A stretch of DNA of 64,000 nucleotides from Phycisphaerales bacterium (GCA_020639075.1 JACKHI010000001.1:2662315-2726314), one strand, 5' to 3'. Shown: positions 15,355 through 57,515, counted from the stretch's first letter. Program-made: numbers and translations. Notes: a model not told the origin generated them from the sequence alone.

Positions 15355-15396
15355 ATCGACCCGACATTCGCCGGAGCGTGCCGATTGCGCATCGTC

Positions 15397-16120: not shown

Positions 16121-16135
16121 GTAGGTCGGGTCATC

Positions 16136-17677: not shown

Positions 17678-17711
17678 TCGACCCGACATTCGCGGGCGCG
17701 TACCGATTGCG

Positions 17712-34052: not shown

Positions 34053-34272
34053 GGATAACCACCCCTTCTTGTCTTCTATCATCGGATCAACGCGACTCGT
34101 ATCGTTGTACGAACCTCTGGACCGCTGCCGATAATCGATTGGCGAGGGTGTAGAAAAACAGGCCGGCGCCGACAATTTGTTGAGAATTCCGGTAAGGCAA
34201 TAGGCGGATCACTCATGCGGGAATGCTCCAGTCATGGGCTTCGAGGCGGAGCACGGATCAAGGGCCTGTTGC

Positions 34273-35637: not shown

Positions 35638-35768
35638 CGGCGTACGCGCTCGAAATCACCTCACGAGTGCAATCGCGCCGGGCCGGAACACCGGGCAAGT
35701 TCGGAACAGAGAATTCGCGATTGTCGCGGTGCGACGACCGGACCGCGCCGAAAACAGGGAGCCATGCC

Positions 35769-37091: not shown

Positions 37092-37277
37092 CGGCCGCCG
37101 CCGCCATGAACGGCACGCCTCCGCGACCGACTCGATGGCTTTGACGAAATACCTGCCAATATGCGTACAGAATCCGCGTTGCATCCGGCCTGATTCCAGA
37201 CACTATTGAAACCCGTTGCACGACAAAAGCGATTCTGGTTTCATGGTCATTGTCCGGCGATCAGAAGGACGCACGTC

Positions 37278-38480: not shown

Positions 38481-38688
38481 CGATCCCCGCCCCCAAAGCC
38501 AGCAGGAAATCGGGCCATCTTGGGGCTTGCGGGCTTGAAGTATTCCACACATTTAGGTAGTTTGATTCCTGGGCGCCGGGGGGGATCGAGCCTTTCCGGC
38601 AGATTTTCATCGTCAGACGCGGCGGGCCCGCTTTGGCAAACACAATTCAGTCATTACGAACCAAGCGGAAGCGATTCTGGGGAGAATC

Positions 38689-42252: not shown

Positions 42253-42623
42253 GGATGTGAAGCGGCGTCGCGCGAGCAACGCACGATGGCTCCGCAGTCG
42301 GCTGCTGAAACCAATGCCGGATCGACCGTGCGATGGTCACAATCGGCCCGGATTCACGGAACGGAATCGACCCCGCGGATTGGTCGGCCGAGCCGACTGG
42401 CCCTCGGCGATCATACTAACGCAACGCCATATGATTCAGTGATTTATGTCACGCCGCCCGCGCGCAATCCGGCCTGAGGGCGGTTCTCGCCAAGGGTGCC
42501 GATAGGCGAGCGCGGATCGTTGAATCCCGTCCGAAAACTCGATATCATAGCTGACTGAGACGCGCGGATTGCGCGCCTGGGAAAGTAGCAAGTCTCTCGT
42601 CTCGAAGAAGGGAATAAAGAAGC

Positions 42624-43340
42624 ATGTTCAATCGACGACATCAAACGGCGGTCGCGGCTTTGGCGATCGTCGCGCTCTTTGCGACGCTGCCGGCAACGGC
42701 TGCGGAAATAGAAGTCGGCTCAGCCATGGGAACGGTCACACTGAACAGCGACACCGTCGGAACCGTTGATCCGATCGCCGGGACGGATGCGTTCCAGTGG
42801 ACCGGCAACATGACGAACTCGACGATGGGCTGGGGGCTCACGTGGGATCTGACGATCGATCCGGACCCCGGAATCTCCGGCGTTGCGGCGTTCACGAATC
42901 TGACCGGCGTCACGATGAACTTCACGTATAACGTGTCGGCGCTCTCGACGATTGCGATCGGCAGCCCGACGGTATTCGGCTCATCGGCGATTACCGTGAC
43001 TGACGGCGTATCGCTCGGCGGTGCGACGATGTCGGCGTTGACGGGCGACTCGATCTACAACGCGTTTATCAATGCGGCGACGCAGGGAACGTTGTTCAAC
43101 GATCCCTATTCGCTCGTCGCCCCACAGTTCGGATCCAACTCCGACAACGCGAGCTGGGGACCGCAGGCGGCGACTGGACCGCTGGCCATCGGCGACACGT
43201 TCGGCATCAATCACGACTTCAGCCTGACGCCGGGCGACCAGGCGACGGTCAACAGCAATTTCTTCATCATTCCGGAACCGGCGACGCTGGGCTTGCTCGC
43301 GTTCGGCGGCATCGTCATGCTTCGACGCCGCAGTCGCTGA
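42624..43340 (+). CDS. PEP-CTERM sorting-domain protein
   Basis: Signal peptide, Thr/Gly-rich body, C-terminal IPEPATLGLLAFGGIVMLRRRSR (PEP motif, TM helix, basic tail). Confidence 0.75.
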   Translation: MFNRRHQTAVAALAIVALFATLPATAAEIEVGSAMGTVTLNSDTVGTVDPIAGTDAFQWTGNMTNSTMGWGLTWDLTIDPDPGISGVAAFTNLTGVTMNFTYNVSALSTIAIGSPTVFGSSAITVTDGVSLGGATMSALTGDSIYNAFINAATQGTLFNDPYSLVAPQFGSNSDNASWGPQAATGPLAIGDTFGINHDFSLTPGDQATVNSNFFIIPEPATLGLLAFGGIVMLRRRSR

Positions 43341-43373
43341 ATCATACGGAATCACCTGATTAGACAAGAAGGC

Positions 43374-43405
43374 CGATCGCGTTTGCGATCGGTCTTTTTT
43401 TGTGT
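43374..43405 (+). terminator. Rho-independent terminator
   Basis: ggccgatcgc-gttt-gcgatcggtc followed by TTTTTTTGTG. Confidence 0.6.
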
Positions 43406-43499
43406 TCTTCACGCATTTGCGAGACGACACCCTGTATTCGTCCCTGCCCCTCAGAACTTTGGGCAGCAAGGCTCTTGACGACCATTGAAGCCCCGAAAA

Positions 43500-43800
43500 A
43501 AGTGGTCCATCACTGAATATCGTGAAGCTCCGTTGGCATCTGCGGTAGCGCAAGTACCGCGTCCCGATAGGGACGCGCTGAGAATAGCCCAGCCTTTCAA
43601 GGCTGGGATTGATAGTTGGTTACTACCATCGCCGTGCCGTAGGTACGGCGCGACTCCGCGCATCAAGCTCATCCCGTCCTGCTGGGCAACGCCGTGAACT
43701 GAACACAGCTGCGGCAGCACCAGTCAGAGAAACTATGAGCGTGTTCCCCCGGTTGGGATAATTGACCCAAGTTGTTAGAGACGGGTTTGGTTATCTCACG
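43500..43800 (+). ncRNA. Candidate IS110 bridge/seeker RNA in the element's 5' leader
   Basis: Stable hairpins: gcggta-gcgcaag-taccgc (43542-43560), cgcgtccc-gata-gggacgcg (43558-43577), cccagcc-tttcaa-ggctggg (43588-43607), gccgtgcc-gta-ggtacggc (43631-43649). Confidence 0.35.
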
Positions 43801-43816
43801 AACGGAGGAACTCACA

Positions 43817-44848
43817 ATGTTATATGTTGGCATGGACGTACATCTGTTGTCTACCACGATTTGCATTTTTGATCCGACGGCGGACGAACGGCGTCGATAT
43901 CGCACGGTGAAGGTCCCGACGACCGCCGAGGCGATTCGTGGAGTGCTCGAGCCGCTGAACGGGGATTGCAAGGCCGTTTTCGAGATCGGTCCTCATGCCC
44001 AGGCGATCATGGCCATTGTCAAACCCCTGGCCGCCGACGTTCTGGTCGCCAACCCATCCCTGATCCCGTGGCTCTTTCGCGACGGTCGCAAGAACGACAA
44101 GATCGACGCACGCAAGTTGGTGACGTTGCTCTATCTGAACCAGGTGCCGACGGTGCATCTGCCGAGGGCCGACATCGCCGCGTGGCGGGCGCTGATCAAC
44201 CATCGCCGCACCGTGGTGAAGCGTCGCACCAGGGTCAAGAACCAGATTCGCTCGATCCTCCGCGCCTACCTGTACCGCTGCCCGCACAGGAGTTGCTGGA
44301 CGCGAGTCGGACGAATCTGGCTCTCGTCGCTGGCCTTCGACGAACTTCGTCAGTTCATGGTCGAATCGCAGACGGCGGAACTGGACGGGCTCGACGAGAA
44401 GCTGAACGACATTCATCGCCAACTCGATCGGATCGCCAGGCTGCATTCGGACGTGGCGCTGCTACAGACGATTCCCGGCGTGGGACCGCGCACTGCAGAA
44501 GCCGTCGTTGCCTTTACCGACGGCGTCAAACGCTTCCGCGATGGCAAACAGTTCTCGAGTAACTTCGGGGTCGTGCCGACGCTGGATGTCTCGGATGGTC
44601 GCGGCCGCGAAGGATGTATATCGCGGCGCGGCGCCAGCGTGGTGCGTTGGCTGGTCGTCGAGGCGGCGCATGTGGTGATCCGACGCAACCCCGAAATGCG
44701 CGCCTTCTTCGAGCGAGTCCATCGCGGCAGGAAGGATCGGTACAAGAAGGCCATCGTCGCGACGGCTCGCAAGTTGTTGGTGATCGCGTATGCGATGATG
44801 CGGGATCAATCGAAATTCGCACCACAGCGCGTGAGTGCGGCCGCATGA
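43817..44848 (+). CDS. IS110-family transposase (DEDD N-terminal domain plus Transposase_20 C-terminal domain)
   Basis: N-terminus MLYVGMDVH...EIGPHAQ (DEDD_Tnp_IS110). C-terminus LLQTIPGVGPRTAEAVVAFTDGVKRFRDGKQFSSNFGVVPTLDVSDGR. RBS ACGGAGGAA. Confidence 0.85.
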   Translation: MLYVGMDVHLLSTTICIFDPTADERRRYRTVKVPTTAEAIRGVLEPLNGDCKAVFEIGPHAQAIMAIVKPLAADVLVANPSLIPWLFRDGRKNDKIDARKLVTLLYLNQVPTVHLPRADIAAWRALINHRRTVVKRRTRVKNQIRSILRAYLYRCPHRSCWTRVGRIWLSSLAFDELRQFMVESQTAELDGLDEKLNDIHRQLDRIARLHSDVALLQTIPGVGPRTAEAVVAFTDGVKRFRDGKQFSSNFGVVPTLDVSDGRGREGCISRRGASVVRWLVVEAAHVVIRRNPEMRAFFERVHRGRKDRYKKAIVATARKLLVIAYAMMRDQSKFAPQRVSAAA

Positions 44849-45448
44849 TCCGACCGTCGCGAGGCCTCCGATTGGGTGAAGGCCCCGCGATCGGTCGAAT
44901 CATGCTGAGGGTGTAAGACGAAAAAGTGCCGGCGACTGGCGTTGAAAAGGTCGCGGCGGACAGGAGCGTGAAACGGGTCAAGAACGACGGGATGAATTGG
45001 AGTGAGCCCGAACGTGGCGGCTTGATCGTCGAACGGTTGAAAGAACCGCCGGCAGATCGATTCCAGAGAATGGGCCACTCCCCCTGCAAAATCTCATGTG
45101 CCCCGGCCGCATCGAAAGCTACGGAAGGTGAGCACGAATCAGAAGCCTGGAACATTATCCGTCAAAAAATCCCGCCCCTTGACAAACACACGCTCATAGA
45201 AGCCGCCGTGTCCTCACGGCGGAGTCATGCCCATGTACGCTGGATGATTCGCCACGCTGAGACGGTGAGGCACTGATTAGAGCATTCAGTTCACGGCGTT
45301 GCCCGCTGGGACGGGACCTGAAAAACGGCCGCCAACCCCCCGTTGCAGACGGGGGGCCATTCTCATGTGATCCCTGCGGGATCCGGAGTGGATACATCTG
45401 TCGCTCTTGTACCAAGACACCGAATCATCCCGATTTTCCGTGATGAAC

Positions 45449-45491
45449 CAAAAAAGAGCAGCTTGGCCATCCATCGATAACCAAGCTGCTC
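45449..45491 (-). terminator. Rho-independent terminator after 45540..45968
   Basis: Minus strand gagcagcttgg-(14-nt loop)-ccaagctgctc followed by TTTTTTGG. Confidence 0.5.
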
Positions 45492-45539
45492 TCAACTGAC
45501 TTCTGCGGCCGGCGCGCCGGCCGTCAGGCTGATTCGTGA

Positions 45540-45968
45540 TTATTCGACGATTTGCTGAAACCAATCCTCCGTGATCAGTACATCGCGACTGTCGTAGGCC
45601 TCCAGCGTGAATGTGATATCCCTGTCAAGTGCGAAGGTATCGACCGGCACGCTGCCGAACAGGCATTGTTTCTCATCATCGTCCTTACGGACCGACATTT
45701 TGTAGGACTTGTCGTTCACGGTGATCATGCCACGTGCGGGCAGCATGTCTTCCGGAAACTCGGCCATCGGAGTGATTTTGAAAACAGCGGAACCATCCTT
45801 CCAGACCTGATACTCGTAGAGCATGGGCTGATCAAGCGGCCCAGCGTCCGACTCACTCGTCAGTACGGGTTTCTCTGACCAGTTCATCGAACCTGCGATT
45901 GCGGAGATCGAGGTCATCGCCAGGACTGCAATGATTGATCCAATGGCGAGGTGTTTTCGAGCCTTCAT
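45540..45968 (-). CDS. Small secreted protein (142 aa), paralog of 52054..52473
   Basis: Signal peptide. About 50% identical to 52054..52473 (shared W.E.PV..TS..AG..DQP..YE..VWKDGSA..K.TPM.E.PE.MLPA.G.I.VND..YKM.VRKD....QCL.G..PV). No known family. Confidence 0.55.
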   Translation of the reverse strand: MKARKHLAIGSIIAVLAMTSISAIAGSMNWSEKPVLTSESDAGPLDQPMLYEYQVWKDGSAVFKITPMAEFPEDMLPARGMITVNDKSYKMSVRKDDDEKQCLFGSVPVDTFALDRDITFTLEAYDSRDVLITEDWFQQIVE

Positions 45969-46323
45969 CACCTGTCTCCCTTTGTCGTGCGCGGCACTCG
46001 GCCTCTTGAGGATCGCTGCCCGAGCCCCCTTTCCGCTGTGCATATGAAAATAGCAGAGATTGTGGCCATCCTGCAACAATAATATGCAGCATCTCCACAC
46101 ACTGCCGCGTGACTCTCGAATTCTAGCAGAAGGCCGCCATACCTCTGACGCTTCCATCGGGGCTCCACGATTCGAAATACTCCCAATTCACTACTGCGCG
46201 GCACTCCCGGATCGAGTTGCCATGCCGGCGAGAATTCTGAAATCGCCTCCACTTCGCGGAACACCGGTCAAGGATGAGTCCCGAATTGCACGAGTGAATT
46301 CGGCCATATTTCGGGAGGTCAAC

Positions 46324-47391
46324 ATGACAAGTTCAATGGTCCATTCAGCGGAGCGAGCGCGGCCGCAGGAATGCGAGCGGATCGCGCTTGAGGCGACACA
46401 AGTGTGTCACAGTGAGCAAATATCGGCGCCGCCGGTGCGCGTTCTGATCGTGCCCTGGGGTGAAGTCCGCAGCGCTTCCGGAGACTTCGTCGTCGATGCC
46501 GACGGCGCGGCACAGGCGATTGCGGCGTTCTCGGCGCACGGCGCGGATCTGCCGGTAGACTACGAACATCAGACGCTCGGTGGAACCTACGCGTCGCCAA
46601 ACGGACAAGCCCCCGCCGCCGGTTGGATCACGGGGCTTCGTGTCGTGACGCCAAGCGGCGATCGCGCGCCCGGCGCATCCGCAATCAACTCAGCCTTGTC
46701 GGACGAGACCGACTCGCACAGCTTGAGCGTCAACGACGACGGTTCCGGAACATCCCGACCGGCACCGGGCATCTGGGCGGACGTATCCTGGACGGACGAC
46801 GCAAAGCAGCATCTCGCGGCGCGGCGCTATCGCTATCTCTCGCCGGTCGCGCTGGTACGCAAGGCCGATCGCAAATTGATCGGCGTGCACTCCGTTGCGC
46901 TGACGAACAAGCCGGCGATCGTGGGCATGACGCCGGTCGTGAATCGGTCGGCGACGATCGAAGCGGAGTCGCTGGATCTCGCGCCGCTGAAGTCGGTGCT
47001 GCGCCTCGACGACTCGGCGTCGGCGACGGCGATCGTCGCGGGGGCAGTGTCTCGCGTGCGCGAACTCGAGCGGCGGGAGACCGAGCGAGAGGCGGCGCGA
47101 CGCGTCGAGGAGGCGTGCCGGTCCGGCAAGCTCGCGGCGCCGCAGCGCGACTGGGCGTTCGCATTGGCCCTGAAGGATGCCGCGGAGTTCGATCGCTGGC
47201 TGGCAAGTGCGCCTGTCGTCGTTCCGCTCGGGCGTTCGACGGCGCCGGGCCCGGGATCTGCATCGCACGCCGGCTTTCAACGCTCCGCGGCTTCATCGGC
47301 GAAAGCCGAGTGGCAGGCGAATCGTGCATTCCTGGAGCGTCTCTGCACGGAAGAGGCGTATGTCGCGACGGCGCTGCGCGACGTGAACTAA
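46324..47391 (+). CDS. Mu-like prophage protein I (head maturation protease/scaffold, gp32-like)
   Basis: VRVLIVPWGEVRSASGDFVVDADGAAQAIAAFSAHGADLPVDYEHQT resembles the Mu I N-terminal domain. Coiled-coil C-terminal region. GGGAGG RBS before ATG 46324. Confidence 0.7.
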   Translation: MTSSMVHSAERARPQECERIALEATQVCHSEQISAPPVRVLIVPWGEVRSASGDFVVDADGAAQAIAAFSAHGADLPVDYEHQTLGGTYASPNGQAPAAGWITGLRVVTPSGDRAPGASAINSALSDETDSHSLSVNDDGSGTSRPAPGIWADVSWTDDAKQHLAARRYRYLSPVALVRKADRKLIGVHSVALTNKPAIVGMTPVVNRSATIEAESLDLAPLKSVLRLDDSASATAIVAGAVSRVRELERRETEREAARRVEEACRSGKLAAPQRDWAFALALKDAAEFDRWLASAPVVVPLGRSTAPGPGSASHAGFQRSAASSAKAEWQANRAFLERLCTEEAYVATALRDVN

Positions 47392-47557
47392 CGCGCTCGC
47401 GAATCGGTTGGCGACATGCGGGCTGATCGATCGACACCCATCCATTGAGTAATCACGGGCGTTATGTCGCGAGCCCCGGTGTCAGTTCGGCTACGCCGCA
47501 TTGATTCGCATCTGACGTCCGATTGAACATCAACAAGAACATCGGAAGGAGAACATT

Positions 47558-48313
47558 GTGGCGCTAACGGCAAATCGGGAATTGAATCGGTATGTGGATC
47601 AGGAGCTGCGATCTTTCGGCGTCGCGGCGAGCGAGCACATTTACAAAGGCGCACTGGTCGGATTCGATCGTACGTCGGGATTTGTGCGGCCCTATGCTGC
47701 AGGCGATACGTTCGCAGGGATCGCCTACGAAGAGATCGACAACAGTGCCGGCCAGGGCGGCGATCTGTCGATCCGGCTGTACACGCAGGGGGATTTCATT
47801 CTCACCGTCAACGGCGCCGTGCAGAATCTCGCGGGGGCTGCGGTCTATGCATCGAACGATGATCTGATGACGGCCGTTCCGAGCGGGAATCTGACGCCGG
47901 CGGGCATTCTGATCGCCGTCGTCGGATCGAATCTCGGAATCGTGCGGATCCGACCGTTCCTGGCGTCGTCGATCGAGCACGTGGTGCAGACGTCGATCGC
48001 CGGTTCTACATCGGCGGCGACGACTCACGTCGTGTTGACGACGCAACACGCGATCCGAATCGTCAGCGTGCAGGTTCTGTATCTCACGCCGCCGGACCAG
48101 GGCGCCCTGGACGTCGGCTTTTCAGTCGCGGACCCCGACGACATCGTCAACAACTTCAATCTGGCGACGCTGTCCGCGAACGCGATCCAGGCGATGACGC
48201 TTGCGGGGCGCGACGTGACGGCGGGCGTTTCGCTGCTGGCTCGCGTGGGGCAGGCTTCGTCGAACGCGGGTGCGGGCGGCATCGTGACGATCCGGTACGT
48301 CGAACTGCCGTGA
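47558..48313 (+). CDS. Phage head-module protein, unknown (occupies the Mu Z scaffold position)
   Basis: GTG start with GGAAGGAG RBS. Lies between the protease and major-head genes. No recognisable domain. Confidence 0.5.
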   Translation: MALTANRELNRYVDQELRSFGVAASEHIYKGALVGFDRTSGFVRPYAAGDTFAGIAYEEIDNSAGQGGDLSIRLYTQGDFILTVNGAVQNLAGAAVYASNDDLMTAVPSGNLTPAGILIAVVGSNLGIVRIRPFLASSIEHVVQTSIAGSTSAATTHVVLTTQHAIRIVSVQVLYLTPPDQGALDVGFSVADPDDIVNNFNLATLSANAIQAMTLAGRDVTAGVSLLARVGQASSNAGAGGIVTIRYVELP

Positions 48314-48414
48314 CGATCGGAATGACAGCCGTTTCTTTCTGAGATTAGGCGTCGCGCGGCATCCGATTGTCGTGACGCGTTGAATAACAACCACAGCCAC
48401 AGGAGTGCTGACAA

Positions 48415-49329
48415 ATGGCCATTATCAATACGGGGCTATTGACGAAGGGGCTCAAGAGCGAATTCTTCAATCGGCTCGAAGCAACGAAGACGCATTACCA
48501 GGATTTGTCGACGCGCGTGACGTCGACGACGGATCGCGAGACGTATCGCTGGCTCGGCACCGTTCCGCAGGTTCGCGAATGGGGCACGGGCCGACTCGCG
48601 AAGGGGTTGCGCAACGAGAGCTACTCCATCGAAAATCTCAAGTATGAGTCGACGCTGGAAGTCGATCGCGACGAAATCAGCGACGACCAGACGGGGCAGA
48701 TACGATTGCGCGTGGCGGAACTGGCCGAACGCGCAGCGACGCACAAGGACTTCCTCATTGCGCAATTGCTGGCCAATGGCGAGATGGCGGGGAACGACGG
48801 CTACGACGGCGTCAGTTTCATCAATGCCAATCACGTTTCGGGCGCATCCGGGACGCAAAGCAACCTGATGTCATTCGACGCCGCCGATGTCGCCGAGCCG
48901 ACGGTCGATGAGTTCAAGGAGGCGCTCAAGGCGGCGATCAGCCAAATGCTCGGATTCAAGGACGACCAGGGCGAGCCGATGATGACGACGGCGAGCGGTC
49001 TGACCTGCGTCGTACCAACGACGATGTTGTTCACCGCGTCGGAGGCGATCAACTCCACGGTCATCGACAATTCGACGAACGTGCTGCACGGCATCGCGCG
49101 GGTGATCGCCTTTCCGTGGCTGACCGACCTCTCCAAATGGTACCTGTTGAAGACCGACGGGGTCGTGCGGCCCTTCATTTTCCAGGATCGCGAGCCGATT
49201 GAGTTCAACGCATTGACCGAAGATTCGGACGAGGGCTTCCGGCGCGAGAAGTTCCTGTTCGGCGTGCGGGCGCGGTATCGCATGGCCTATGGCTACTGGC
49301 AATTCGCCGTGCGGACGGACTTCATCTAA
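48415..49329 (+). CDS. Mu-like major head subunit (gpT family)
   Basis: MAIINTGLLTKGLKSEFFNRLEATKTHYQDLSTRVTSTTDRETYRWLGTVPQVREWGTGRLAKGL matches the gpT/PF10124 N-terminus. Confidence 0.8.
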   Translation: MAIINTGLLTKGLKSEFFNRLEATKTHYQDLSTRVTSTTDRETYRWLGTVPQVREWGTGRLAKGLRNESYSIENLKYESTLEVDRDEISDDQTGQIRLRVAELAERAATHKDFLIAQLLANGEMAGNDGYDGVSFINANHVSGASGTQSNLMSFDAADVAEPTVDEFKEALKAAISQMLGFKDDQGEPMMTTASGLTCVVPTTMLFTASEAINSTVIDNSTNVLHGIARVIAFPWLTDLSKWYLLKTDGVVRPFIFQDREPIEFNALTEDSDEGFRREKFLFGVRARYRMAYGYWQFAVRTDFI

Positions 49330-49500
49330 AGCCGGCGCACGGATGTCCCATCTCCGAGTGGGCACGGGGATGGGGCATTCTGCGCTTGTTGAAGATCTCA
49401 GCCCCAGTATCCGCGCAATAGGTTTGACGCCCGACCCGATCCGTCCAAGCCCGACATCAGGCGCGGGGTACGGTGTCTTTCATCAGAGAGGAAAACTGTC

Positions 49501-49944
49501 ATGGCATACGTATCAAATGCGGACATACAGGCGCTGCTCGGAACAGCGGCGACGATCGAGCTGACGGACGACGCGGGGAGCGGGACGATCAACGCGTCGA
49601 TTCTGACGACGGCCCGAATCGGCGCCGAAGGCGAGGCCAACAGCTACTTCGCGACACGCTATCGGGTTCCGGTCGAACTATCGAACGAAGCCGAAGTTGC
49701 GGCCGTGATTCAGACATTCGTCCTTGATCTGGCGGTCTATCGGCTGCACAGCCGCAAGCCACCGATCCCCGATGACATCGTCCGCCGGCGACAGGAGGCG
49801 GTTGCCTGGCTATCGCGCGTGGCGGATGGTCGTGTGCGCCTGCCGTCCATCGCATTGCTGCAAGACAACGACGCGGCAGGGTTGATCGGCAAGGCGACAG
49901 GGCCCACACGAACCATGACGCGCGAGTCATTGGACGACATCTGA
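49501..49944 (+). CDS. Mu gp36-like head-tail connector protein (DUF1320)
   Basis: MAYVSNADIQALLG...LTDDAGSGTINASILTTARIGAEGEANSYFATRYRVPVE fits the DUF1320 pattern. Confidence 0.7.
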   Translation: MAYVSNADIQALLGTAATIELTDDAGSGTINASILTTARIGAEGEANSYFATRYRVPVELSNEAEVAAVIQTFVLDLAVYRLHSRKPPIPDDIVRRRQEAVAWLSRVADGRVRLPSIALLQDNDAAGLIGKATGPTRTMTRESLDDI

Positions 49945-50054
49945 GAAACGTGAGGGCGACGACGTGACGCAGCGAACCGGGTAACGGCACGATTGCGCCG
50001 TCGAATCGGGTGTCGGCGTCACGTTCGCCAACGACTCCGGGAAAGAGGATCCAC

Positions 50055-50882
50055 ATGTCTCGACTGGGCGACATCGAATCAACCATCGTTTCTCGACTCT
50101 CAACAGCAACCGTGGCTGGCAGCCCGGCATATGCGACGATCGAAGGCGTCAGCGGCGGCAATCGAGCCGCGCTCCGCGAGGCACTGCGACGTGAACGAAT
50201 GCCGGCGGCCTACGTCTCCTTCGTCGATGAACCGTTGGCGCCGGAGGTGCGAGAGGCGATTCGCGGCTCGAGGTTTGCGGTGCTCGTCGCCGATCGAACG
50301 TTGCGACCGGCGTCGGATCCGAGGCTGGGTGACGAGTCGACGCCCGGAACATTCGCCCTGCTGGATGCGGCCCAGGCCGTACTGGACGACTTCTCTCCGG
50401 CGGCGGGGACTCGTCTTGTCGCTATTCAGGCGCGATTCGTCGAGGCGGATGATCGCGTCGGCATGTATGAACTGCTCTATCGCGCGTGGCCGATCGACGA
50501 GGTCGCACCAAGCGTGCTGGAATTCGATGGAAGCACGATCGCCGGCGCGCTCAGCGAATTGCGTGCGGACATCGGAAGTTTTCGCGTCGTGCCCGAGGAT
50601 CCGGAGGCCGATCCGCCTTGGACGTATGTCAACACGTCGCGCCCCATCGTCTGGCGCGGAGAGATTCGCTCGACGACCCATGCGGCGATGTGGGCGATCG
50701 AAGACAACATCGAGGCGCTCATCGCGGCGCGAACCGTCGCAACGCTCAAAAGCGTCCACGGTCAAAACCTCGACGACTGCCTGATCGAGCGGTACGAGCG
50801 CGTCGGGGCGCGGCGGATCGTCGGGACGCGCATTACGCAGCCCGCGGCGATTCACTTCTCGCAGTTGACGCCGGTGCCGTAG
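50055..50882 (+). CDS. Mu gp37-like protein (DUF1834-like), last phage-type gene of the module
   Basis: Position after the gp36-like gene. GAAAGAGGA RBS before ATG 50055. Its last 250 bp are duplicated at 56238-56492. Confidence 0.5.
   Translation: MSRLGDIESTIVSRLSTATVAGSPAYATIEGVSGGNRAALREALRRERMPAAYVSFVDEPLAPEVREAIRGSRFAVLVADRTLRPASDPRLGDESTPGTFALLDAAQAVLDDFSPAAGTRLVAIQARFVEADDRVGMYELLYRAWPIDEVAPSVLEFDGSTIAGALSELRADIGSFRVVPEDPEADPPWTYVNTSRPIVWRGEIRSTTHAAMWAIEDNIEALIAARTVATLKSVHGQNLDDCLIERYERVGARRIVGTRITQPAAIHFSQLTPVP
50632..50882. repeat. Direct repeat copy 1 (3' end of the gp37-like gene including its stop)
   Basis: Near-identical (about 5 mismatches in 250 bp) to 56238-56492. Confidence 0.8.
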
Positions 50883-50973
50883 CTGCGCGGCGGCGATTGA
50901 TGATCTGTCCGGCCATTCGGGTTTGGCGGCAATCCCCGAGCGAGCGAGACCTCGCACGAACTGCGGCGGGATG

Positions 50974-51879
50974 TCAAGGAACCGATTGCCGCAAATTGTC
51001 GGGCAGATGCAGGTCGTTGCGCGGCGCCTCGCGACCGGCTGGCGGCGGAATTGTGCCGAGATAATCCGGTCGGGGGCCGGACTCAGTCGTCTGCGGTTCA
51101 CTCAGTCGTACGCGCCGCGCGAAACGCGCGGGTTGCCACTGCGCCGGATCCGGAGTCAAGAAAATCGCAACCTGCCGTCTGTTCAATCCATCCCAATCGA
51201 CGCCGCGCGCGGAATAGATGCCCACGACGCAGACCCGGCCGTCGGCCCCCAGGACGGCCACGGGGCCGCCCGACATCCCGGCCGTGTCCGTCGGCGGCAC
51301 GACCGCTCGTTTGACGCGCGGGCCGTCGCCCGCTCTTGGCGCAATGATTCGCCCCATGATGATTTTCGGCGATCGCGCCTGAAGCGCCGCCTCCGCGTCA
51401 CCGCCCGTCGCCCCCGTTGTAAAACCGCCGATGAAGACGGCCTCCCCGATTTGGAAATCGTGGTCCGGGTCGAGGTCGTTGTAATGCCAGCAATCCGTCA
51501 TACACGCCAGCACGGCCCAGTCGTCGGCGCGCGCGCGATGCGGGTCAGCCGCCTGCGCGGTCCGCAGAAATGGGTACATCCGTCGCCCTGCGACCGTCGC
51601 AAAGTCGGCATCATTCAACACGTGCGCCGCGCAAACGACGTTGCGCGGGTGCGTCGGGAATCCGGAGCCCCAAATCCCCGTGCGCACCGGAAGAACGATG
51701 AGCTGCCGGCGCACCTCGCGAATTGCGGCCGCATCCTGCTCGGGACCTGGCGCAATACACCTGGTCGTGGACGCCAGCATCACAAACAGCGTGAGGTAAA
51801 TACCGGTTCGCGGCAGTTTGTCCGGCGCCGATCGTCGTCGTGTCTGTGTTCGGTTGCTGCCAGTGGGTTCGCCGCGCAT
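50974..51879 (-). CDS. Trypsin-like S1 serine peptidase (paralog A), secreted
   Basis: Catalytic motifs VVCAAHVLND (His), DDWAVL (Asp), GMSGGPV (Ser). Signal peptide. Start 51879 (the ORF extends to 51990). Confidence 0.7.
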   Translation of the reverse strand: MRGEPTGSNRTQTRRRSAPDKLPRTGIYLTLFVMLASTTRCIAPGPEQDAAAIREVRRQLIVLPVRTGIWGSGFPTHPRNVVCAAHVLNDADFATVAGRRMYPFLRTAQAADPHRARADDWAVLACMTDCWHYNDLDPDHDFQIGEAVFIGGFTTGATGGDAEAALQARSPKIIMGRIIAPRAGDGPRVKRAVVPPTDTAGMSGGPVAVLGADGRVCVVGIYSARGVDWDGLNRRQVAIFLTPDPAQWQPARFARRVRLSEPQTTESGPRPDYLGTIPPPAGREAPRNDLHLPDNLRQSVP

Positions 51880-52053
51880 TGGCAGTGCGTTATACGCCTG
51901 CACCGCCACCGGATCAACGACGGCGGTGTAGGCCGCGAATGTCGGCAGTCGGAAAAGGCAACGGAACGCAAAAGGCGGTCCATGCGGCATTGAGCCGCAT
52001 GTACCGCCGCTGGCTTCTGGAATGGATGACAGACCAATCCCGCGCTCGCGAGA

Positions 52054-52473
52054 CTACTCCACAACATTGGATGCGTAGTCGTTGAAAATACGCTTGTCGC
52101 GATAGTCGTACGCCGTTGCCGTGTAGACAATGGTCTCGTTCAGCGTCAGGGTGCCGACGGGCAGGCAGCCGTAGAGACACTGGCGGCCTTCGCTGTCTTT
52201 CCGCACGGCCATCTTGTATTCCGTATCGTTGACTCTTATCGAGCCGTATGCCGGCAGCATCTCTTCCGGCAGCTCTGTCATGGGTGTGAGCTTGAGCTCT
52301 GCGGAACCATCTTTCCAGACGCGGGTCTCGTAGCGGATCGGCTGATCCCAATAGCCCGCCTCGCCACTCGTCTCAATCACCGGATTTTCGGACCACGCGA
52401 TCGAACCGGCAAATGCGCTGAGGGTGGAAACGACTGCCAACGCGGCCAGCACGAATGCAATTCGGGGTTTCAT
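52054..52473 (-). CDS. Small secreted protein (139 aa), paralog of 45540..45968; candidate partner of the S1 peptidases
   Basis: Signal peptide MKPRIAFVLAALAVVSTLSAFA. Conserved core shared with 45540..45968. Located between the two peptidase genes. Confidence 0.6.
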   Translation of the reverse strand: MKPRIAFVLAALAVVSTLSAFAGSIAWSENPVIETSGEAGYWDQPIRYETRVWKDGSAELKLTPMTELPEEMLPAYGSIRVNDTEYKMAVRKDSEGRQCLYGCLPVGTLTLNETIVYTATAYDYRDKRIFNDYASNVVE

Positions 52474-52861
52474 TGAAGTCTCCTGCGCTGGTCATTATGA
52501 CATTGGTGCTTGTTCATTTCACGCTCTCATCCGTACAGTTGGCAACAACGGTCCGAAAGCACTTCGAGAACGACGCCCCGACCGAAGGCGCTCAGTAGAA
52601 ATCGTTCCGGGCCGAGTGCTTCCCGCAAAATACCATACATGTGTCGCCCCAAGGTGACATTTGACTGGGGCCCGATGGCCGCCGCGGTCATCGGGGGCGA
52701 GTAGCCAATTACGGGATCCACCGCATCGACGTTCGCAAGTGCACATCAAATAGCGAGCCGTGAGTTTCGAGTTTCGATGGACTTGACTGGCGGAGAACTT
52801 GCAGTCGGCAAGATGGCGCCGAACTCAACCACTGTCGCCCTGCAGCGCTTTGCCCGCTCAG

Positions 52862-53725
52862 TTAGCGCCTCCCCGTGGCCTGGCTACGCAGGTATTCCGG
52901 CAGGAACAAATCGCCGTCCATCGGATTCGCACCCAATGGCGGAAAGGTCCCATCGAAGCTCTTGCGATGCACAATCTTTTCGGGCGCATGGCCCGAATCG
53001 AACATGTCGAAGCAGGCCCGGCCCCACTGCTGTTTCGTCGGCACGATGAATGCACATAGCTGTTTTCGAGCCAGCGGGCTCCAATACGATGCGCCGCCGA
53101 CTGCTACGCCGATCACCTTGACCCGACCATCTGCGCCAATAACCGCCACCGGGCCGCCGGAAATCCCGGAGTGGTCCCGCCACGGCACATGCGCCCGATA
53201 GAGTGGGCCAGCGTCGCCGGATCGGCGAGGAAACACGGCACCGGAGAACACGCCGGGGGCTGCGGCCCGCGCCCCGTTCGTATACCCGCCGAAATAGACC
53301 GTGTCGCCCGCCGACAATGCGACTTCCGGCTCGATGTCGTTGCAGTGCCAGAGATTCTCGGCAACGCCGAGGATTGCCCAGTCCTCGCTGCGCGGCCGAT
53401 CGGGATCCATACAGTACGACTTGCGTGAAAGCGGTTCCGTCGTGTGGCCGGCGACGTCGACGGTCGCCTGTGCGTCGACGATGTGCGCGGCTGTGATGAG
53501 GTTGCGGCGACTCGTTGGAAAGCACGAGCCGTATGTGCCATCGGGGTTCCTGATCGGCAGAACGATCAGTTGGTCTCGAACGCGACTGATTCCGGCGGAA
53601 TCCTGGATAGGATCGACCACCGGGGCGCAACCGAGCACGCCTGTCATTGCGGCGGAGAGCGTGGCGGCCCACGCCCATTGGCGCGCTAATAGTCTGATTC
53701 GACTGTGTTGTGTCACCGCCGGCAT
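52862..53725 (-). CDS. Trypsin-like S1 serine peptidase (paralog B), lipoprotein
   Basis: LITAAHIVDA (His), EDWAIL (Asp), GISGGPVAV (Ser). Lipobox LGC. About 40% identical to paralog A. Confidence 0.7.
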   Translation of the reverse strand: MPAVTQHSRIRLLARQWAWAATLSAAMTGVLGCAPVVDPIQDSAGISRVRDQLIVLPIRNPDGTYGSCFPTSRRNLITAAHIVDAQATVDVAGHTTEPLSRKSYCMDPDRPRSEDWAILGVAENLWHCNDIEPEVALSAGDTVYFGGYTNGARAAAPGVFSGAVFPRRSGDAGPLYRAHVPWRDHSGISGGPVAVIGADGRVKVIGVAVGGASYWSPLARKQLCAFIVPTKQQWGRACFDMFDSGHAPEKIVHRKSFDGTFPPLGANPMDGDLFLPEYLRSQATGRR

Positions 53726-53856
53726 CCGCAACTCGCCCGCCGTCTGAGGAAATACTGCCCCGCCGCGCCGGCAGGCGAGCATTGACCCTAACGAAACGTG
53801 CGTGCGCCAGCAACCTGGCGCACGCACGACCAACTCACATTACGGTATGGCGGCTG

Positions 53857-54639
53857 CTAGAGGCTGAACTTCATGCTGACCTCGCCATCCTTGTATAGTA
53901 GGATGGTGTCAAAGTCGTCGTAGGGGCCGTTGAGCCCGAGGCTATACTTCGTGCCGCCGGTCTCGAAATCAAGCGACTTCACTCCCAGGCGCCCCAGCAC
54001 CTCGATCGTTTGTCCAAGGGTCGCCTGGTTGACTTGCACCATGAGGGCGGGCTCCGCGGAATCCGCCAGGGGGACGTCATAGATCTCTATTCTGTCTTCG
54101 CCAATTGCAGTCAACAATTCGGGAACTTGCTCCCACGGGAGCGCCCAATGTCGGTCGCAGACGACAAAGAATGTCAATCGGTCGCCGCTGGACAGCTTGC
54201 CGGGCGAAACTGGCGCGTATGCGTATGCACTGACCATAAGGTGAAGGTTGCCGTATTCGTCTGGGTCAAGCCCGTACTCGCTTCGCGTCGATGAACCCGA
54301 CGTGATCGGGGGATATTTATCCGGGTCGAAACCCGGCCATTGGGTTGGGTTTCTTGGCTTTCCATTCTCATCGAAACCGAGGCACTTCGGCGGTGTCACG
54401 CCTTCCGCGCACCACTCCCGATTGCCGTTTCGGTCGAAGACCCAGGTAATTCCTGTATTTGGGTCGTAGCTTCGCACTTTGGCGCGGGGCTCGCCCACAG
54501 CATGGGCCGGGCGAGGCACATCGTCCGATTCGCGTTCGTTCGTATTGCCCTCGTACTCGCTTCCGGGGTTGATGCACCCGGCCAGTAATGGTGCAACGAC
54601 CAATGCCAATACCAGCGTTGTCAGCTTTCTCTGTTTCAT
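53857..54639 (-). CDS. Lipoprotein, hypothetical
   Basis: Signal peptide with lipobox LLAGC. No recognisable domain. Confidence 0.55.
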   Translation of the reverse strand: MKQRKLTTLVLALVVAPLLAGCINPGSEYEGNTNERESDDVPRPAHAVGEPRAKVRSYDPNTGITWVFDRNGNREWCAEGVTPPKCLGFDENGKPRNPTQWPGFDPDKYPPITSGSSTRSEYGLDPDEYGNLHLMVSAYAYAPVSPGKLSSGDRLTFFVVCDRHWALPWEQVPELLTAIGEDRIEIYDVPLADSAEPALMVQVNQATLGQTIEVLGRLGVKSLDFETGGTKYSLGLNGPYDDFDTILLYKDGEVSMKFSL

Positions 54640-55070
54640 GCTCTCGGCTCCAATCGTTAACGCGACCGCCTATTCGGCCGCGCAGTCACTGAGTACGCAA
54701 TGGAGCGGTAATTTGCAAGCATTTTTTTGGGGATTACCGCCGGAATGGCATCGATTGTCATTGGATTGCCACCCGTGTGGCATTGCAATCGTAGCGCGTG
54801 GCACCGGCCCGCGAACCGCCCGCGGACGGGGACTATTTTGCAATTGGGCCCAGATGTTCCGCAATTCCGCGTCTCGCCAATCGAATTTCCATTTTTGAAT
54901 GCGGTCGCGCGCTCGGATTCGGCGTCGCAGTTCTGGATACGTGTTCCACCGAGGCACCGGCGCCCTAGCGCATTTTTTTGTCTCGAGCGCGTATTGGGCG
55001 TACCCCGGGAGCGGGCCGGTCGGCAGGAACGGCTGTAGCGCGATTAGGGGCGTTTCGCAGCGGAATCCGC

Positions 55071-55760
55071 CTATCCCCCCACCGTCGCGGACGCGACAGC
55101 CGAAAGCGGGCCGCGTTCGCCGCGCGTGTTCACCCACCGTAAGACATAGCTTGCCGTCTTACCGCCATCGGCGCCGCCGAACTCCACCACCGCCGGCGTG
55201 CGCGTGGCCAGATTCACGAAACCGAATGGTGCAAGGGATCCGGTGGACGGTGGATCGATTGACGGGGTAGCGCCCCCAACATGGACCCAGATCTCCGCGC
55301 CGATGACGCCCTTCGGCTTCGCCCGCCGTGTCGGCATCCGCGAATCGGCGAAATGCAAAGTATGACGCAGCCGCTCCGACGTATCGACTGAGATCAACGG
55401 CACGCTTGTCGGGACATCCGACGGCGTGAGGACAGAGTCACGAATCGTGATTCCTAACGCCGCGCGCATGGCATCGCTCGTCGACTCAGCATCCTGAATC
55501 CGCGCGACAAGCGACCGGACTTGCGACTTCAGTGCCTTCATCGCGAGCGCCTTCGCTGAAGCGGCCTCCGCATAGGCGGCGCGCGCTGCGGCCAGACCGG
55601 CATAGTGCTTCTGCCACGTGACGCTCTGTTCCTGCAGCTTTTCGACATCCCCATCCGAAAGGCCCAGCGCTTTCGAATGTGCGACGGCGTAGGCGACAAA
55701 GTTCTCCTGCCACGCATCGAATGCGCCGCCGGCATCGGGCATGAAATCGGTGGTTCGCAT
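55071..55760 (-). CDS. Hypothetical protein, first gene of the antisense cassette
   Basis: 229-aa ORF with coding-like composition. N-terminal half alpha-helical and Ala-rich. Confidence 0.4.
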   Translation of the reverse strand: MRTTDFMPDAGGAFDAWQENFVAYAVAHSKALGLSDGDVEKLQEQSVTWQKHYAGLAAARAAYAEAASAKALAMKALKSQVRSLVARIQDAESTSDAMRAALGITIRDSVLTPSDVPTSVPLISVDTSERLRHTLHFADSRMPTRRAKPKGVIGAEIWVHVGGATPSIDPPSTGSLAPFGFVNLATRTPAVVEFGGADGGKTASYVLRWVNTRGERGPLSAVASATVGG

Positions 55761-56237
55761 TGCTCGGCCCTCCCCTGCCGATTTTGTCGGGCATCTTCGC
55801 CTGATGATTCAATGGGCGGCACGCCAATACACCGTTCTCGGAAACTGCGAACGCAAACCGAATTTCGCCGGTGCCACCGTCATGTCGTTGTACCGCGCAC
55901 CGACCCGCAATCAGGTCCGATCAGTCGTTACCACGGGCCGCCCGGCGCGAGAGGGCGCATTACCAACACGCAATGCCGTTGGATTGCACGAGAGTAGCGA
56001 ATTTATAGGCGACCGGCGCGCGGGAATGAGCCCCGCTCCCCCGGCGCGGCGCGCCGGGGATCCGGCACACCGCGCCGGAATACCGGAATGAAACAACGGA
56101 TGTCTGTCGCGCCATCACAGAGCCCCGGCGCGCCAATGCACTTCGGCGGCGCGCCATGGCGGACATCTGCGGCGCAACCACAGCGGACTGCCGCGCCCGT
56201 ACGGAGACGCTGCCGCCGGGCCCCCCGCCGACAGGCG

Positions 56238-56492
56238 GAATGCGCGTCGCGCCCCATCATCTGGCGCGGAGAGATTCGCTCGACGACCCATGCGGCGATG
56301 TGGGCGATCGAAGACAACATCGAGGCGCTCATCGCGGCGCGAACCGTCGCAACGCTCAAAAGCGTCCACGGTCAGAACCTCGACGACTGCCTGATCGAGC
56401 GGTACGAGCGCGTCGGGGCGCGGCGGATCGTCGGGACGCGCATCACGCAACCCGCGGCGATTCACTTCTCGCAGTTGACGCCGGTGCCGTAG
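56238..56492 (+). pseudogene. Truncated duplicate of the gp37-like 3' end (direct repeat copy 2)
   Basis: Encodes ...RPIIWRGEIRSTTHAAMWAIEDNIEALIAARTVATLKSVHGQNLDDCLIERYERVGARRIVGTRITQPAAIHFSQLTPVP*, identical to the C-terminus of 50055..50882 apart from a few SNPs. No start codon or N-terminal region. Confidence 0.75.
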
Positions 56493-56642
56493 TGCACTAT
56501 CTCAGACTTGCGCGTTGTTCAATACCTGGAGAATTCGGGCTCCGAAGCCGACACTCCCCTACTTAGTAACCACCCAACTGAGTCGCGATCGAGTCGTCAT
56601 TGGCGGCGTTGGGGTTCTCGTGCGATCGGCTACAATGTCGGC

Positions 56643-57515
56643 ATGGCGATCAACCCCACAGTTGGCGAATCTCGGGACCTCACCGGCGGCGGCATGTTGC
56701 TGGCGCGCGAGATTCGTTTTTCGATCGATCGCGACTGGGCGGCGGCGGCGCACGGCGAAGACGGGTTTGGCAGCGCGCATCCCATCACGAATTCCTGGGG
56801 CGGCTGGCCGTCCGCCGTCGGGATCGCTCCCTATCTCGTGCTTCGTATTGAGGTGGTCGGCACGCCCGACACCGTGACGGGATACCTCGTCAATATCATG
56901 GAGCTCGATCGGCTGTTGCGCAATCACGCGCTGCCGCAAGCGGCGCGCAAGTTGCGCGAGCGCGGCGTGCACCTGACGGGCGAGTTGCTGATTCGCGGCA
57001 TCTGGGAGGAACTGTCCGGGCGCGAAGCCGAGGCCTGGTCGATGCGGGCGCTGACGTTGTGGACGACGCCGCATCTGTCGTATGCGATTCGCGCGGGAGA
57101 CGCTGACATGACGGAACTAACGCAGTGCTTCGAGTTTTCTGCCTCGCATCGACTGCACGTGGCGTCGATGAGCGATGAAGACAATCGTCAATACTTCGGA
57201 AAGTGCAACAACCTGAACGGCCACGGCCACAACTATCGCGTCGAAGTCACGATCGGCCGGGAATCGCTGGACTCCGCCGGACGCGTCGCAGCGATCCCGA
57301 AGTTTGAATCCGTCGTCCAACACGAAGTCATCGATCGGCTCGATCACAAGCATCTCAATGCCGACGTCCCCGAGTTTCGCGACGTCAACCCATCCGTCGA
57401 GAACATCGCTCGAACCGTCTGGTCATATCTGCAAGGCAAGCTGGAGCCGGCCCGCCTCGTTCGGGTTCGCGTCTGGGAAACGGCCAAGACTTATGCCGAA
57501 TACCGCGGCGAATGA
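56643..57515 (+). CDS. 6-pyruvoyl-tetrahydropterin synthase / QueD-family protein (about twice the usual length)
   Basis: Catalytic triad region CNNLNGHGHNYRVEVTI...HKHLN...PSVENIA in the C-terminal half. The N-terminal half is a second PTPS-like repeat. Confidence 0.7.
   Translation: MAINPTVGESRDLTGGGMLLAREIRFSIDRDWAAAAHGEDGFGSAHPITNSWGGWPSAVGIAPYLVLRIEVVGTPDTVTGYLVNIMELDRLLRNHALPQAARKLRERGVHLTGELLIRGIWEELSGREAEAWSMRALTLWTTPHLSYAIRAGDADMTELTQCFEFSASHRLHVASMSDEDNRQYFGKCNNLNGHGHNYRVEVTIGRESLDSAGRVAAIPKFESVVQHEVIDRLDHKHLNADVPEFRDVNPSVENIARTVWSYLQGKLEPARLVRVRVWETAKTYAEYRGE

Follow-up and report, generated by a model that had tools for sequence, protein, structure and literature searches.

Elements that insert in the 3' end of a gene and supply a replacement end include e14 and phage 21 in the icd gene of E. 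coli, islands in tRNA genes and the integrase-less CIMEs of streptococci. In prophages and satellites, accessory genes also gather at hotspots that lie between conserved genes, such as the defence hotspots of P2 and P4. The locus described here lies in a 64-kb stretch of DNA from a Phycisphaerales bacterium, referred to below as the window, and shares features with both. Like the 3'-end elements, it combines an intact target gene and an orphan 3' end on the far side of an insert with empty sites in relatives, but no integrase is found in or beside the inserted cassette, the insert has co-diverged with its host since before a species split, and the identity of the repeat has been maintained secondarily. 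Like the P2/P4 hotspots, it is a fixed junction of two conserved genes with variable cargo (nothing, peptidases, a TIR protein or a seven-gene block), but the carrier is not a mobile prophage but a chromosomal module that appears to be vertically inherited, and the cargo in the window consists of secreted proteases and lipoproteins rather than known defence genes. The locus also resembles cases of concerted evolution by gene conversion, such as the tuf duplicates and gene/pseudogene pairs, in that copies within the genome are closer than orthologs while their flanks are orthologous, and in that the homogenised tract ends where homology ends. Here, however, one partner is a 248-nt stub truncated at its 5' end, and the two are direct repeats 5.4 kb apart between which deletion of the intervening genes has not become fixed.

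The repeated sequence is the 3' end of a gene whose product is identical to the NCBI protein P0164, a 'DUF1834 family protein', and matches Pfam PF08873 (Phage_Mu_Gp37; 32.4 bits, cut-off 25). Its AlphaFold2 model (mean pLDDT 85) gave the phage Mu tail terminator 9khy as the best Foldseek match in the PDB (E 2e-5), followed by T5 p142, lambda gpU and T4 gp15, so that both family match and fold place it among the phage tail terminators (Mu gp37/DUF1834). Members of the gp37 family swap their C-terminal domains, with FN3 in this position in 249-aa forms; a search of IMG/VR gave no relative of the family.

A repeat finder identified the last 82 codons and the stop codon of this gene (copy A) a second time in the same orientation (copy B), with a start-to-start spacing of 5610 nt and no longer direct repeat anywhere in the window. 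Compared base by base, the copies differ at 4 of the 248 positions (98% identity), namely at repeat offsets 15, 131, 200 and 206 (G/A, A/G, T/C and G/A); three of the differences are synonymous and one exchanges Val and Ile. The last base of each copy is the G of the TAG stop, and the flanks are unrelated on either side. The preliminary description of this DNA had reported a near-identical duplication of the gp37-like 3' end that includes the stop codon and ends at 56492, all of which agrees with the alignment, while its start for the second copy, 56238, was 7 nt too far to the left. Such a match cannot be due to chance. The repeat is real and is supported by the raw data: Logan unitigs from two runs (SRR12358675 and SRR12358676) end 30-45 nt into it from three sides, and the two left-hand junctions differ in the allele at the first mismatch. 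Moreover, the stub, the hypothetical protein (hyp) and gp37 are each represented by three NCBI accessions with identical spacing, which points to a single gene order shared by three assemblies, of which one has the locus on a 5.63-Mb contig.

Table. Features of the gp37–PTPS region (positions counted from the first nucleotide of the window)
Feature	Position	Strand	Remarks
gp37-like gene, 275 aa	50055..50882	+	N-terminal tail-terminator-fold domain and family-specific C-terminal domain
Repeat copy A, working last 82 codons and TAG of gp37	50635..50882	+	in frame
Peptidase A, trypsin-like serine peptidase, probably secreted	50974..51990	-	Pfam Trypsin_2, 32.4 bits (cut-off 27.6)
Small secreted protein, 139 aa	52054..52473	-	signal-peptide-like N-terminus
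Peptidase B, 261 aa (NCBI call)	52862..53647	-	peptidase A paralog; lipobox-like LGC motif
Terminator-like 14-bp GC-rich hairpin followed by T's	53797..53828	-	just downstream of lipoprotein gene
Lipoprotein, 260 aa	53857..54639	-	lipobox LLAGC in translation
Hypothetical protein (hyp), 229 aa	55071..55760	-	long helical hairpin and C-terminal FN3 domain
Region upstream of hyp, 484 nt	55761..56244	.	abuts the truncated gp37 end at its right edge
Repeat copy B, orphaned 5'-truncated gp37 3' end (stub)	56245..56492	+	
Spacer between copy B and PTPS	56493..56642	+	
PTPS/QueD-like gene	56643..57515	+	conserved right-hand neighbour of module; Pfam PF01242, E 3e-36

Between the copies lie five genes on the minus strand, all as previously described: two trypsin-like peptidases, a lipoprotein, a small secreted protein and hyp. 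AAH, DW and G(M/I)SGGP motifs are present in the translations of both peptidases (in peptidase A as AAHV, DWAVL and GMSGGP for His, Asp and Ser), and these are predicted to be S1 (trypsin-like) serine peptidases. Peptidase B, for which the gene limits were taken from L034, is 39% identical to peptidase A and also matched a PHROG protease and the protease domains of RT-Protease models in PADLOC. Neither the lipoprotein nor the small secreted protein matched a family in Pfam, NCBIfam, PHROG or PADLOC; the latter has a 52% identical paralog upstream of the protease/scaffold gene (45540-46157, minus strand). The Logan unitigs break also at the terminator-like hairpin. For hyp, 81 homologs were found, each of about 220 aa and without a Pfam domain, and its AlphaFold2 model (mean pLDDT 92.8) matched FN3 domains only; the modelled fold is not that of a recombinase. 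With no match to a recombinase family in Pfam, NCBIfam, PHROG or PADLOC for any of the five proteins, the cassette encodes no recognisable recombinase.

Copy B begins at the second base of codon 194, and 64 aa of it are annotated at NCBI as H6819_10490. The frame is open for a further 157 nt upstream, which do not look like coding sequence since GC content is flat across the codon positions (0.71/0.73/0.69). In the region between hyp and the stub, the first ~310 nt contain blocks conserved in the relatives L002, L037 and L039, and the distal part is GC-rich with a 32-nt imperfect inverted repeat (56048-56134). The last ~40 nt of the spacer on the other side of the stub (..GTTGGGGTTCTCGTGCGATCGGCTACAATGTCGGCATG) are conserved upstream of PTPS in L035, L036, L038 and L039. 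A stub is also present in a second lineage, where the 84-aa protein P0136 and copy B begin at one and the same gp37 codon; P0136 matches the C-terminus of a full-length gp37, P0162, with 89% identity.

We also compared the gp37–PTPS gap among relatives. Empty sites, in which gp37 is followed directly by PTPS, were found in L035, L036, L037 and L038, which are among the closest relatives sampled and belong to the window's own clade, and in the more distant L006/L024; the gaps without a cassette measure 208, 58, 5 and 113 nt in L035 to L038, respectively. The empty-site configuration, for which the preliminary description had proposed to search, exists in these relatives. In L002 the gap holds a different insert of 4.8 kb that includes homologs of peptidases A and B (59% identity for A), begins within about 10 nt of the stop codon and has no repeat, and its close sister L036 has the empty site. 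In L012 there are three copies of a gp37 end with both edges shared and with mixed substitution types; between them lie two unlike cassettes, of which one encodes a TIR defence-like protein, and this repeat sits elsewhere in the gene than that of the window. The location of cassette genes around the module also varies from one genome to another. The gp37–PTPS gap is a hotspot with variable insertions.

A conserved block of seven genes of unknown function occupies the gap in ten other relatives. The earlier expectation that tail genes should stand here is half right, given this block and the tail-terminator fold of the gp37-like protein, but the cassette displaced no such block, since it is absent also from the empty-site relatives of the window's clade. 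The earlier description had phage-type genes ending at the second copy and an unrelated PTPS gene beginning; the switch to PTPS is real but PTPS is not an unrelated neighbour, for it is syntenic in about 20 relatives, and PTPS, a 154-aa protein and a HEAT-repeat protein follow the module in nearly every one. The suggestion that the repeat pair is a substrate for deletion is plausible, and recombination could also delete the enclosed genes because the direct repeats are only 5.4 kb apart. Simple repeat-by-repeat deletion does not, however, link the filled and empty states: the empty L038 carries the type of spacer found after copy A, not that found after copy B (local alignment of ~17 nt after the copy A stop, 50883-50899, with the spacer after the L038 gp37 stop).

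The closest relative is L039 (94% amino acid identity for the HEAT protein and 92% for PTPS in global alignments), a different species with dS values of 0.5-1.3 to the window in flanking genes. Its gene order is hyp on the minus strand, the spacer, gp37 codons 195-275 with TAG, then TGCACT.. and PTPS. The left junction is common to the two genomes (..CCCCCCGCCGA[C/A]AGGCGGAA.., followed across the junction by CGTCGCGCCCC), as is the right flank of the stub in the alignment, and blocks of the spacer are 76-82% identical; hyp and the spacer show about the divergence of the host genes. The stub loci are orthologous, and from the same structure and orthologous junctions in L039 it follows that the duplication is older than the split between the two. 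The two copies in the window, in contrast, have a dS of only 0.049, whereas identity between copy B and its L039 ortholog is 85.5% (dS 0.40, dN 0.094), with differences of 9:7:20 over the three codon positions. Of the 36 sites that separate copy B from L039, copy A agrees with copy B at 34, and the four differences between A and B, when polarised by L039, split 2:2, with both changes in copy A synonymous. Paralogs that are far closer than orthologs, at loci that are orthologous by flanks and junctions, indicate concerted evolution, that is, recombination of the copies with each other; this is demonstrated in one lineage only, as the L039 contig stops just beyond hyp, short of its full-length gp37 and of the remaining cassette. 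The preliminary description had attributed the near-identity to recent insertion or recombination. Recombination is borne out, as the homogenised copies show, but insertion is not recent: L039 has the same succession of hyp, spacer, truncated gp37 end and PTPS, and the 98% identity reflects homogenisation.

We consider it likely that copy B is an orphaned gp37 stub from an old duplicative recombination at the gp37–PTPS junction that has since been homogenised with copy A. An antisense accessory block, ending with hyp and its ~480-nt upstream region, would have lodged at the junction by duplicative recombination before the split from the L039 organism and left a gp37 3' stub beside PTPS; thereafter the stub and the working gene end would have been homogenised repeatedly by recombination between them. 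Gene conversion would be the simplest form of this process, and the same pattern would be left by repeated excision and re-integration by way of the repeat. Homogenisation explains why only 4 of the 248 positions differ. The left edge of the repeat is sharp because homology stops at the truncation junction, and the right edge because the spacers beyond the stop codon were never alike. The duplication itself may have arisen by single-crossover integration of a circle carrying the gene end, or by one-ended homologous plus illegitimate joining. A site-specific mechanism fits better than random illegitimate joining in view of the shared edges in L012 and of the codon at which P0136 and copy B both begin. 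Although the stub itself is probably without function, its frame has been kept open in three lineages, which leaves room for a function of its own.

The cassette might instead be an integrase-less, site-specific integrative element of the cis-mobilisable kind that targets the gp37 3' region and brings a surrogate gene end, the two copies being attL and attR, the recombinase being encoded elsewhere and the near-identity reflecting recent movement within the species. We regard this as doubtful. Target-derived direct repeats lie at both ends, with the cassette-proximal copy restoring the gene and the orphan copy on the far side, and relatives have empty sites; the truncation point of the stub is the same in the window, L039 and P0136, the three identical-edged copies in L012 bracket two cassettes, and the placement of cassette genes around the module varies among genomes. 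Yet no integrase or recombinase was found within the cassette or beside the module in the window (Pfam, NCBIfam, PHROGs, PADLOC and the model of hyp), where the only transposases, an IS110-family gene and two DDE genes, lie elsewhere. Since the L012 repeat lies in another part of the gene, the two repeats share no core site; in L002 the homologs of peptidases A and B sit at the same hotspot without a repeat, and hyp and the spacer, shared with L039, co-diverge with the host genes, which fits vertical descent.

It is decidedly unlikely that the stub is kept for its own sake, either as a stand-alone protein of the gp37 C-terminal domain or as a silent donor that varies the gp37 C-terminus in the manner of pilS and pilE. 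The frame is open over 134 codons in the window, 97 aa in L039 and 84 aa in P0136, where an ATG stands at the junction; dN/dS between copy B and its L039 ortholog is about 0.23, the same domain occurs free as the 137-aa protein P0147, and the gp37 family is prone to domain swapping at this end. On the other hand, the predicted C-terminal domain is covered by the repeat over only about two thirds of its length, and no coding signature is seen ahead of the junction. Both the open frame and the low dN/dS are sufficiently explained by conversion from copy A, which is under selection, and the single Val/Ile difference leaves no variation to donate. Diversity-generating retroelements likewise have a nearly identical copy of the final ~100-250 nt of a phage structural gene within a few kb of it, but they were rejected since none of the genes tested between 46 and 60 kb matched RVT and since the mismatches, in L012 as in the window, affect more than the adenines of a single copy.

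That the cassette inserted recently, with the 1.6% divergence between copies as the time elapsed, is very improbable: the high identity and the empty site in the sister lineage L038 agree with it, but L039 has the same junctions at dS values of 0.4-0.8, which contradicts it unless the structure in L039 had an independent origin, and for peptidases A and B and hyp the dS to homologs in L002 and L039 is at least 0.66. An assembly artefact, or a chimera of strains with and without the cassette, is scarcely credible even for a metagenome-assembled genome in which a k=31 graph breaks within the repeat and cannot phase it, as the junction of the hyp spacer with the middle of gp37 occurs in unitigs of both runs and in another species, the three assemblies agree, and mismatches at most 116 nt apart could probably be phased by reads of ordinary length or large k-mers.

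What surrounds the repeat is a chromosomal Mu-like head module with a tail-terminator-like gp37. It contains genes for terL (terminase), portal, protease I/scaffold, a decoration-like protein, gpT (major head), gp36 and gp37, with no recognisable tail genes beyond the tail terminator, and is flanked by CheW, tRNA, PTPS and HEAT genes. The module lacks the marks of a transposable Mu-like prophage, as neither transposase A/B nor a repressor, lysis genes or a complete tail module were found beside the head genes. Synteny with PTPS, the 154-aa protein and the HEAT protein extends over about 20 loci across Planctomycetota, and gpT is under strong purifying selection (dN/dS about 0.04-0.06). The module looks domesticated. 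In its phage structural genes at a conserved chromosomal position across a phylum-level group, its strong purifying selection and the lack of adjoining integrase, replication or lysis genes it resembles gene transfer agents, but it comprises only head genes and a tail terminator.

A wider reading seems to us unlikely, namely that in a domesticated Mu-like particle cluster spread across Planctomycetota the gp37 3' end serves as a site dedicated to the capture of integrase-less cassettes. Cassettes with a copy of the gene end, such as the peptidases here or the TIR defence-like gene in L012, would then be gained and lost through recombination at that end. If true, the repeat would be the working att-like site of a cassette-exchange system not yet described, and the particle itself might carry cassettes between cells.

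The longest direct repeat of the 64-kb window, as given by the repeat finder, is a pair of 248-nt copies located 5610 nt apart. The first, copy A, lies in the gp37-like gene, and the second, copy B, is an orphaned, 5'-truncated end of gp37 (a stub) located beside a QueD-like gene (PTPS). The preliminary description of a long, near-identical direct repeat that includes a TAG stop was borne out by a base-by-base alignment of the copies with their flanks. The copies differ by 4 mismatches, at offsets 15, 131, 200 and 206, which read G-A-T-G in copy A and A-G-C-A in copy B. One results in a Val/Ile exchange and three are synonymous, identity switches on and off abruptly at both edges, and the last base of both copies is the G of the TAG codon. 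Copy B starts at the second base of gp37 codon 194, and the open frame that leads into it has GC contents of 0.71, 0.73 and 0.69 at the three codon positions, with no coding signature.

The evidence speaks against an assembly artefact as the source of the repeat. Where contig JACKHJ010000015.1 (NCBI assembly GCA_020639055.1) overlaps the window, the two are 100% identical. Independent raw-read unitigs (k=31) from two runs, SRR12358675 and SRR12358676, extend 30-45 nt into the repeat and end there. They enter it from three directions: from the gp37 5' part, from peptidase A and from the spacer next to hyp, a 229-aa protein encoded nearest copy B. At the first mismatch, the alleles of the two left-hand junctions differ. 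Moreover, the stub protein, hyp and gp37 have three NCBI accessions each with equal spacing, which indicates that three assemblies share this gene order; in one of these, the genes are on a contig of 5.63 Mb.

Coordinates of the repeat copies and associated features in the window and in related loci
Feature	Sequence	Position	Strand	Remark
Repeat, copy A	window	50635-50882		
Repeat, copy B	window	56245-56492		
gp37-like gene	window	50055-50882	+	275 codons; copy A is its in-frame end
Open frame leading into copy B	window	from 56088		
Mu-like head module	window	34234-50882	+	
Insertion of 9 kb	window	37092-46323		between portal and protease I
IS110-family element	window	43672-45316		transposase 43772-44848
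33-nt inverted matches	window	43672-43703 and 45285-45316		bound the IS110-family element
Paralog of small secreted protein	window	45540-46157	-	inside the 9-kb insertion
tRNA-Ile	window	32982-33060		anticodon TAT
DDE-transposase elements	window	13796-15371 and 16119-17694		inverted copies of 1576 nt
Seven-gene block	L004	8738-14781	+	also L003, L005, L007, L013, L014, L018, L019, L021, L023
Copies of the last 27 gp37 codons	L012	5275-5354, 7174-7253, 8289-8368		
hyp next to truncated gpT	L002	2252-2700		
hyp next to truncated gpT	L037	388-900		
hyp homolog and FN3 protein	L040	1669-2370 and 4591-5004		second genome of the same samples

The age of the duplication was assessed by comparison with L039, a contig from another sequencing run (SRR12009706) that was found through its hyp homolog and represents the closest relative, of a different species. 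Identities to the window proteins are 94% for the HEAT-repeat protein, 92% for PTPS and 76% for hyp. In the orientation of the window, L039 contains hyp on the minus strand, a spacer, gp37 codons 195-275, the TAG codon and PTPS, and it has the left junction and the right-hand spacer in common with the window, which makes the stub loci of the two species orthologous. The dS values for flanking genes were 0.5-1.3. Within the repeat, copy B and the L039 stub share 85.5% identity (dS 0.40, dN 0.094), whereas copies B and A are 98% identical (dS 0.049). Copy A carries the base of copy B at 34 of the 36 positions at which copy B and L039 differ. The orthology of the stub and the likeness of the copies within the genome together indicate that the duplication is old and that the copies were homogenised after the species split. 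With L039 as reference, two changes have accumulated per copy since the last homogenisation, both of which are synonymous in the functional copy. A search with the L039 stub recovered no full-length gp37 from that organism.

The claim of a recent insertion is thus not supported: the duplication predates the split from L039, and judging from these alignments the 98% identity marks recombination between the copies. Dating the insertion by repeat identity would here be off by about tenfold. The long, near-perfect repeat mimics a fresh insertion, and comparison with one relative exposes an old structure that recombination between its copies makes look young. The repeat is real and biologically maintained. 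Its sharp left edge is explained by homology ending at the truncation junction, and its sharp right edge by the different spacers, since conversion acts only where the loci are alike and ends at the stop codon. Immediately beyond copy A, about 17 nt are similar to the sequence that follows the gp37 stop in L038, a locus from the same clade, and copy B is followed by the spacer that also occurs in L039. We therefore dropped the idea that copy B is the original end of the host and copy A an import; with these spacer matches, neither copy can confidently be called the import.

The five minus-strand genes between the copies, reported earlier and confirmed by gene and family analysis, encode two paralogous trypsin-like peptidases, a lipoprotein, a small secreted protein and hyp. 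Catalytic motifs are present in the translations of both peptidases. None of the five proteins matched a recombinase family in four libraries, and hyp as a hidden recombinase was rejected since its predicted fold consists of a long helical hairpin and an FN3 domain. A known defence system was likewise rejected, as PADLOC matches were confined to the protease domains. In L040, a hyp homolog with 58% identity is located beside an HD-domain protein, away from any head module, and a separate 137-aa protein matches only the FN3 half of hyp.

Comparison with related loci shows that the gap between gp37 and PTPS is a variable cargo slot, or hotspot. Empty sites occur in the clade of the window, where PTPS follows gp37 after 113 (L038), 5 (L037), 58 (L036) and 208 nt (L035). 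No empty site was found from the same species, the nearest gp37 in the genome and metagenome scans being ≤70% identical. A different insert of 4.8 kb with homologs of peptidases A and B is present in L002, beginning no more than about 10 nt from the stop codon, while in L036, a close sister of L002, the gap is empty. In L012, the last 27 gp37 codons are present in three copies, 86-88% identical and with equal edges, that bracket two cassettes, one with a TIR-domain protein (ThsB-like PADLOC matches) and one with a 207-aa protein; among 26 other loci, a second copy of the gp37 end was found only here. The gap of ten relatives contains a conserved plus-strand block of seven genes (~727, 169, 275, 229, 170, 266 and 117 aa) that is missing from the clade of the window and from the whole window. 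Pfam and PHROGs gave no informative match to the block, and profile searches with the first two of its proteins gave no significant sequence match in the PDB. The block is located where tail genes would come after a tail terminator.

The structure of the duplication fits either of two routes: a circle with the gene end and the cassette could have integrated by a single crossover, or one-ended homologous recombination could have been combined with an illegitimate joint within the resident gene. Joints beside hyp have cut head genes more than once, as indicated by L002 and L037, in which hyp and a conserved upstream region of about 310 nt abut a gpT gene truncated at about codon 38. This junction is equal in the two loci, the truncated gpT is 84-88% identical to that of the window, and neither contig contains a protease or decoration gene upstream. 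A serious rival is a site-specific process, for which the three equal-edged copies in L012 speak, as does a third stub protein (P0136, 84 aa; 89% identical to the end of the full-length gp37 P0162) whose starting codon is that of copy B. P0136 is encoded on a 33,246-nt Logan contig that, to judge by its length, probably also carries the hyp homolog P0058. A structured RNA was rejected because Rfam gave no match at E≤1 across 44-58 kb, a diversity-generating retroelement because no reverse transcriptase matched among the genes analysed from 46 to 60 kb and the mismatches are not adenine-specific, and a tRNA-linked island because the only tRNA in the window is 17 kb distant. Between this tRNA and the terminase gene, which follows 1.2 kb downstream, lies a CheW/CZB gene; no tRNA was found on the loci of ten relatives.

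The head module contains the terminase large subunit gene (terL), portal, a 9-kb insertion, protease/scaffold I, a decoration-like protein, the major head protein gpT, gp36 and the gp37-like gene. The structure model of gp37 (mean pLDDT 85) had its best match in the tail terminator of phage Mu, ahead of the T5, lambda and T4 terminators, and includes an additional C-terminal domain, conserved within the gp37 family. Elsewhere, the N-terminal terminator domain is joined to other C-terminal domains, in 249-aa forms with FN3 and in 330-358-aa forms (P0037-P0053; L010, L028, L029), and giant proteins of 1000-2500 aa contain 3-5 repeated stretches that match the initial ~50 residues of the domain encoded by the repeat. 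The 9-kb insertion separates genes that are neighbours in relatives and encodes proteins of 424 and 1187 aa, the latter a beta-helix protein with dockerin-like repeats, as well as a PEP-CTERM protein and an IS110-family element, at the right end of which a raw-read unitig breaks; no end-duplications were found to flank it. Elsewhere in the window, two DDE-transposase elements (99% identical, 466-aa ORFs) are separated by 747 nt with a 140-aa ORF, a layout like that of a composite transposon.

The related loci were sampled from assemblies and metagenomes of Phycisphaerae and other Planctomycetota. On all contigs of sufficient length, PTPS, a 154-aa protein and the HEAT-repeat protein are encoded downstream of the head genes. 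The upstream side is not conserved. With dN/dS ratios of about 0.04-0.06 for gpT and 0.1-0.2 for gp36 and gp37, the module is under strong purifying selection. The window revealed no genes for an integrase, replication or lysis beside it and no recognisable tail genes, no relatives of the gp37 family were found among the 2.9 million contigs of IMG/VR, and the searchable literature yielded no description of the module; we know of no domesticated phage-derived machine in Planctomycetota. On the sequence evidence, what looks like a phage is a conserved chromosomal module, possibly domesticated, and the cassette appears to be long-resident cargo in its hotspot.

The feature itself is a further case of what is already known, combining an orphaned gene end with concerted evolution and hotspot cargo. 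The parts worth following are the recurring duplication of the gp37 end and the surrounding module. The head and terminator genes are conserved across Phycisphaerae and other Planctomycetota, fixed beside PTPS and the HEAT-repeat gene and provided with a variable cargo slot, in which many genomes have seven unknown genes in the tail position; they represent a candidate domesticated phage-derived machine of the Planctomycetota.
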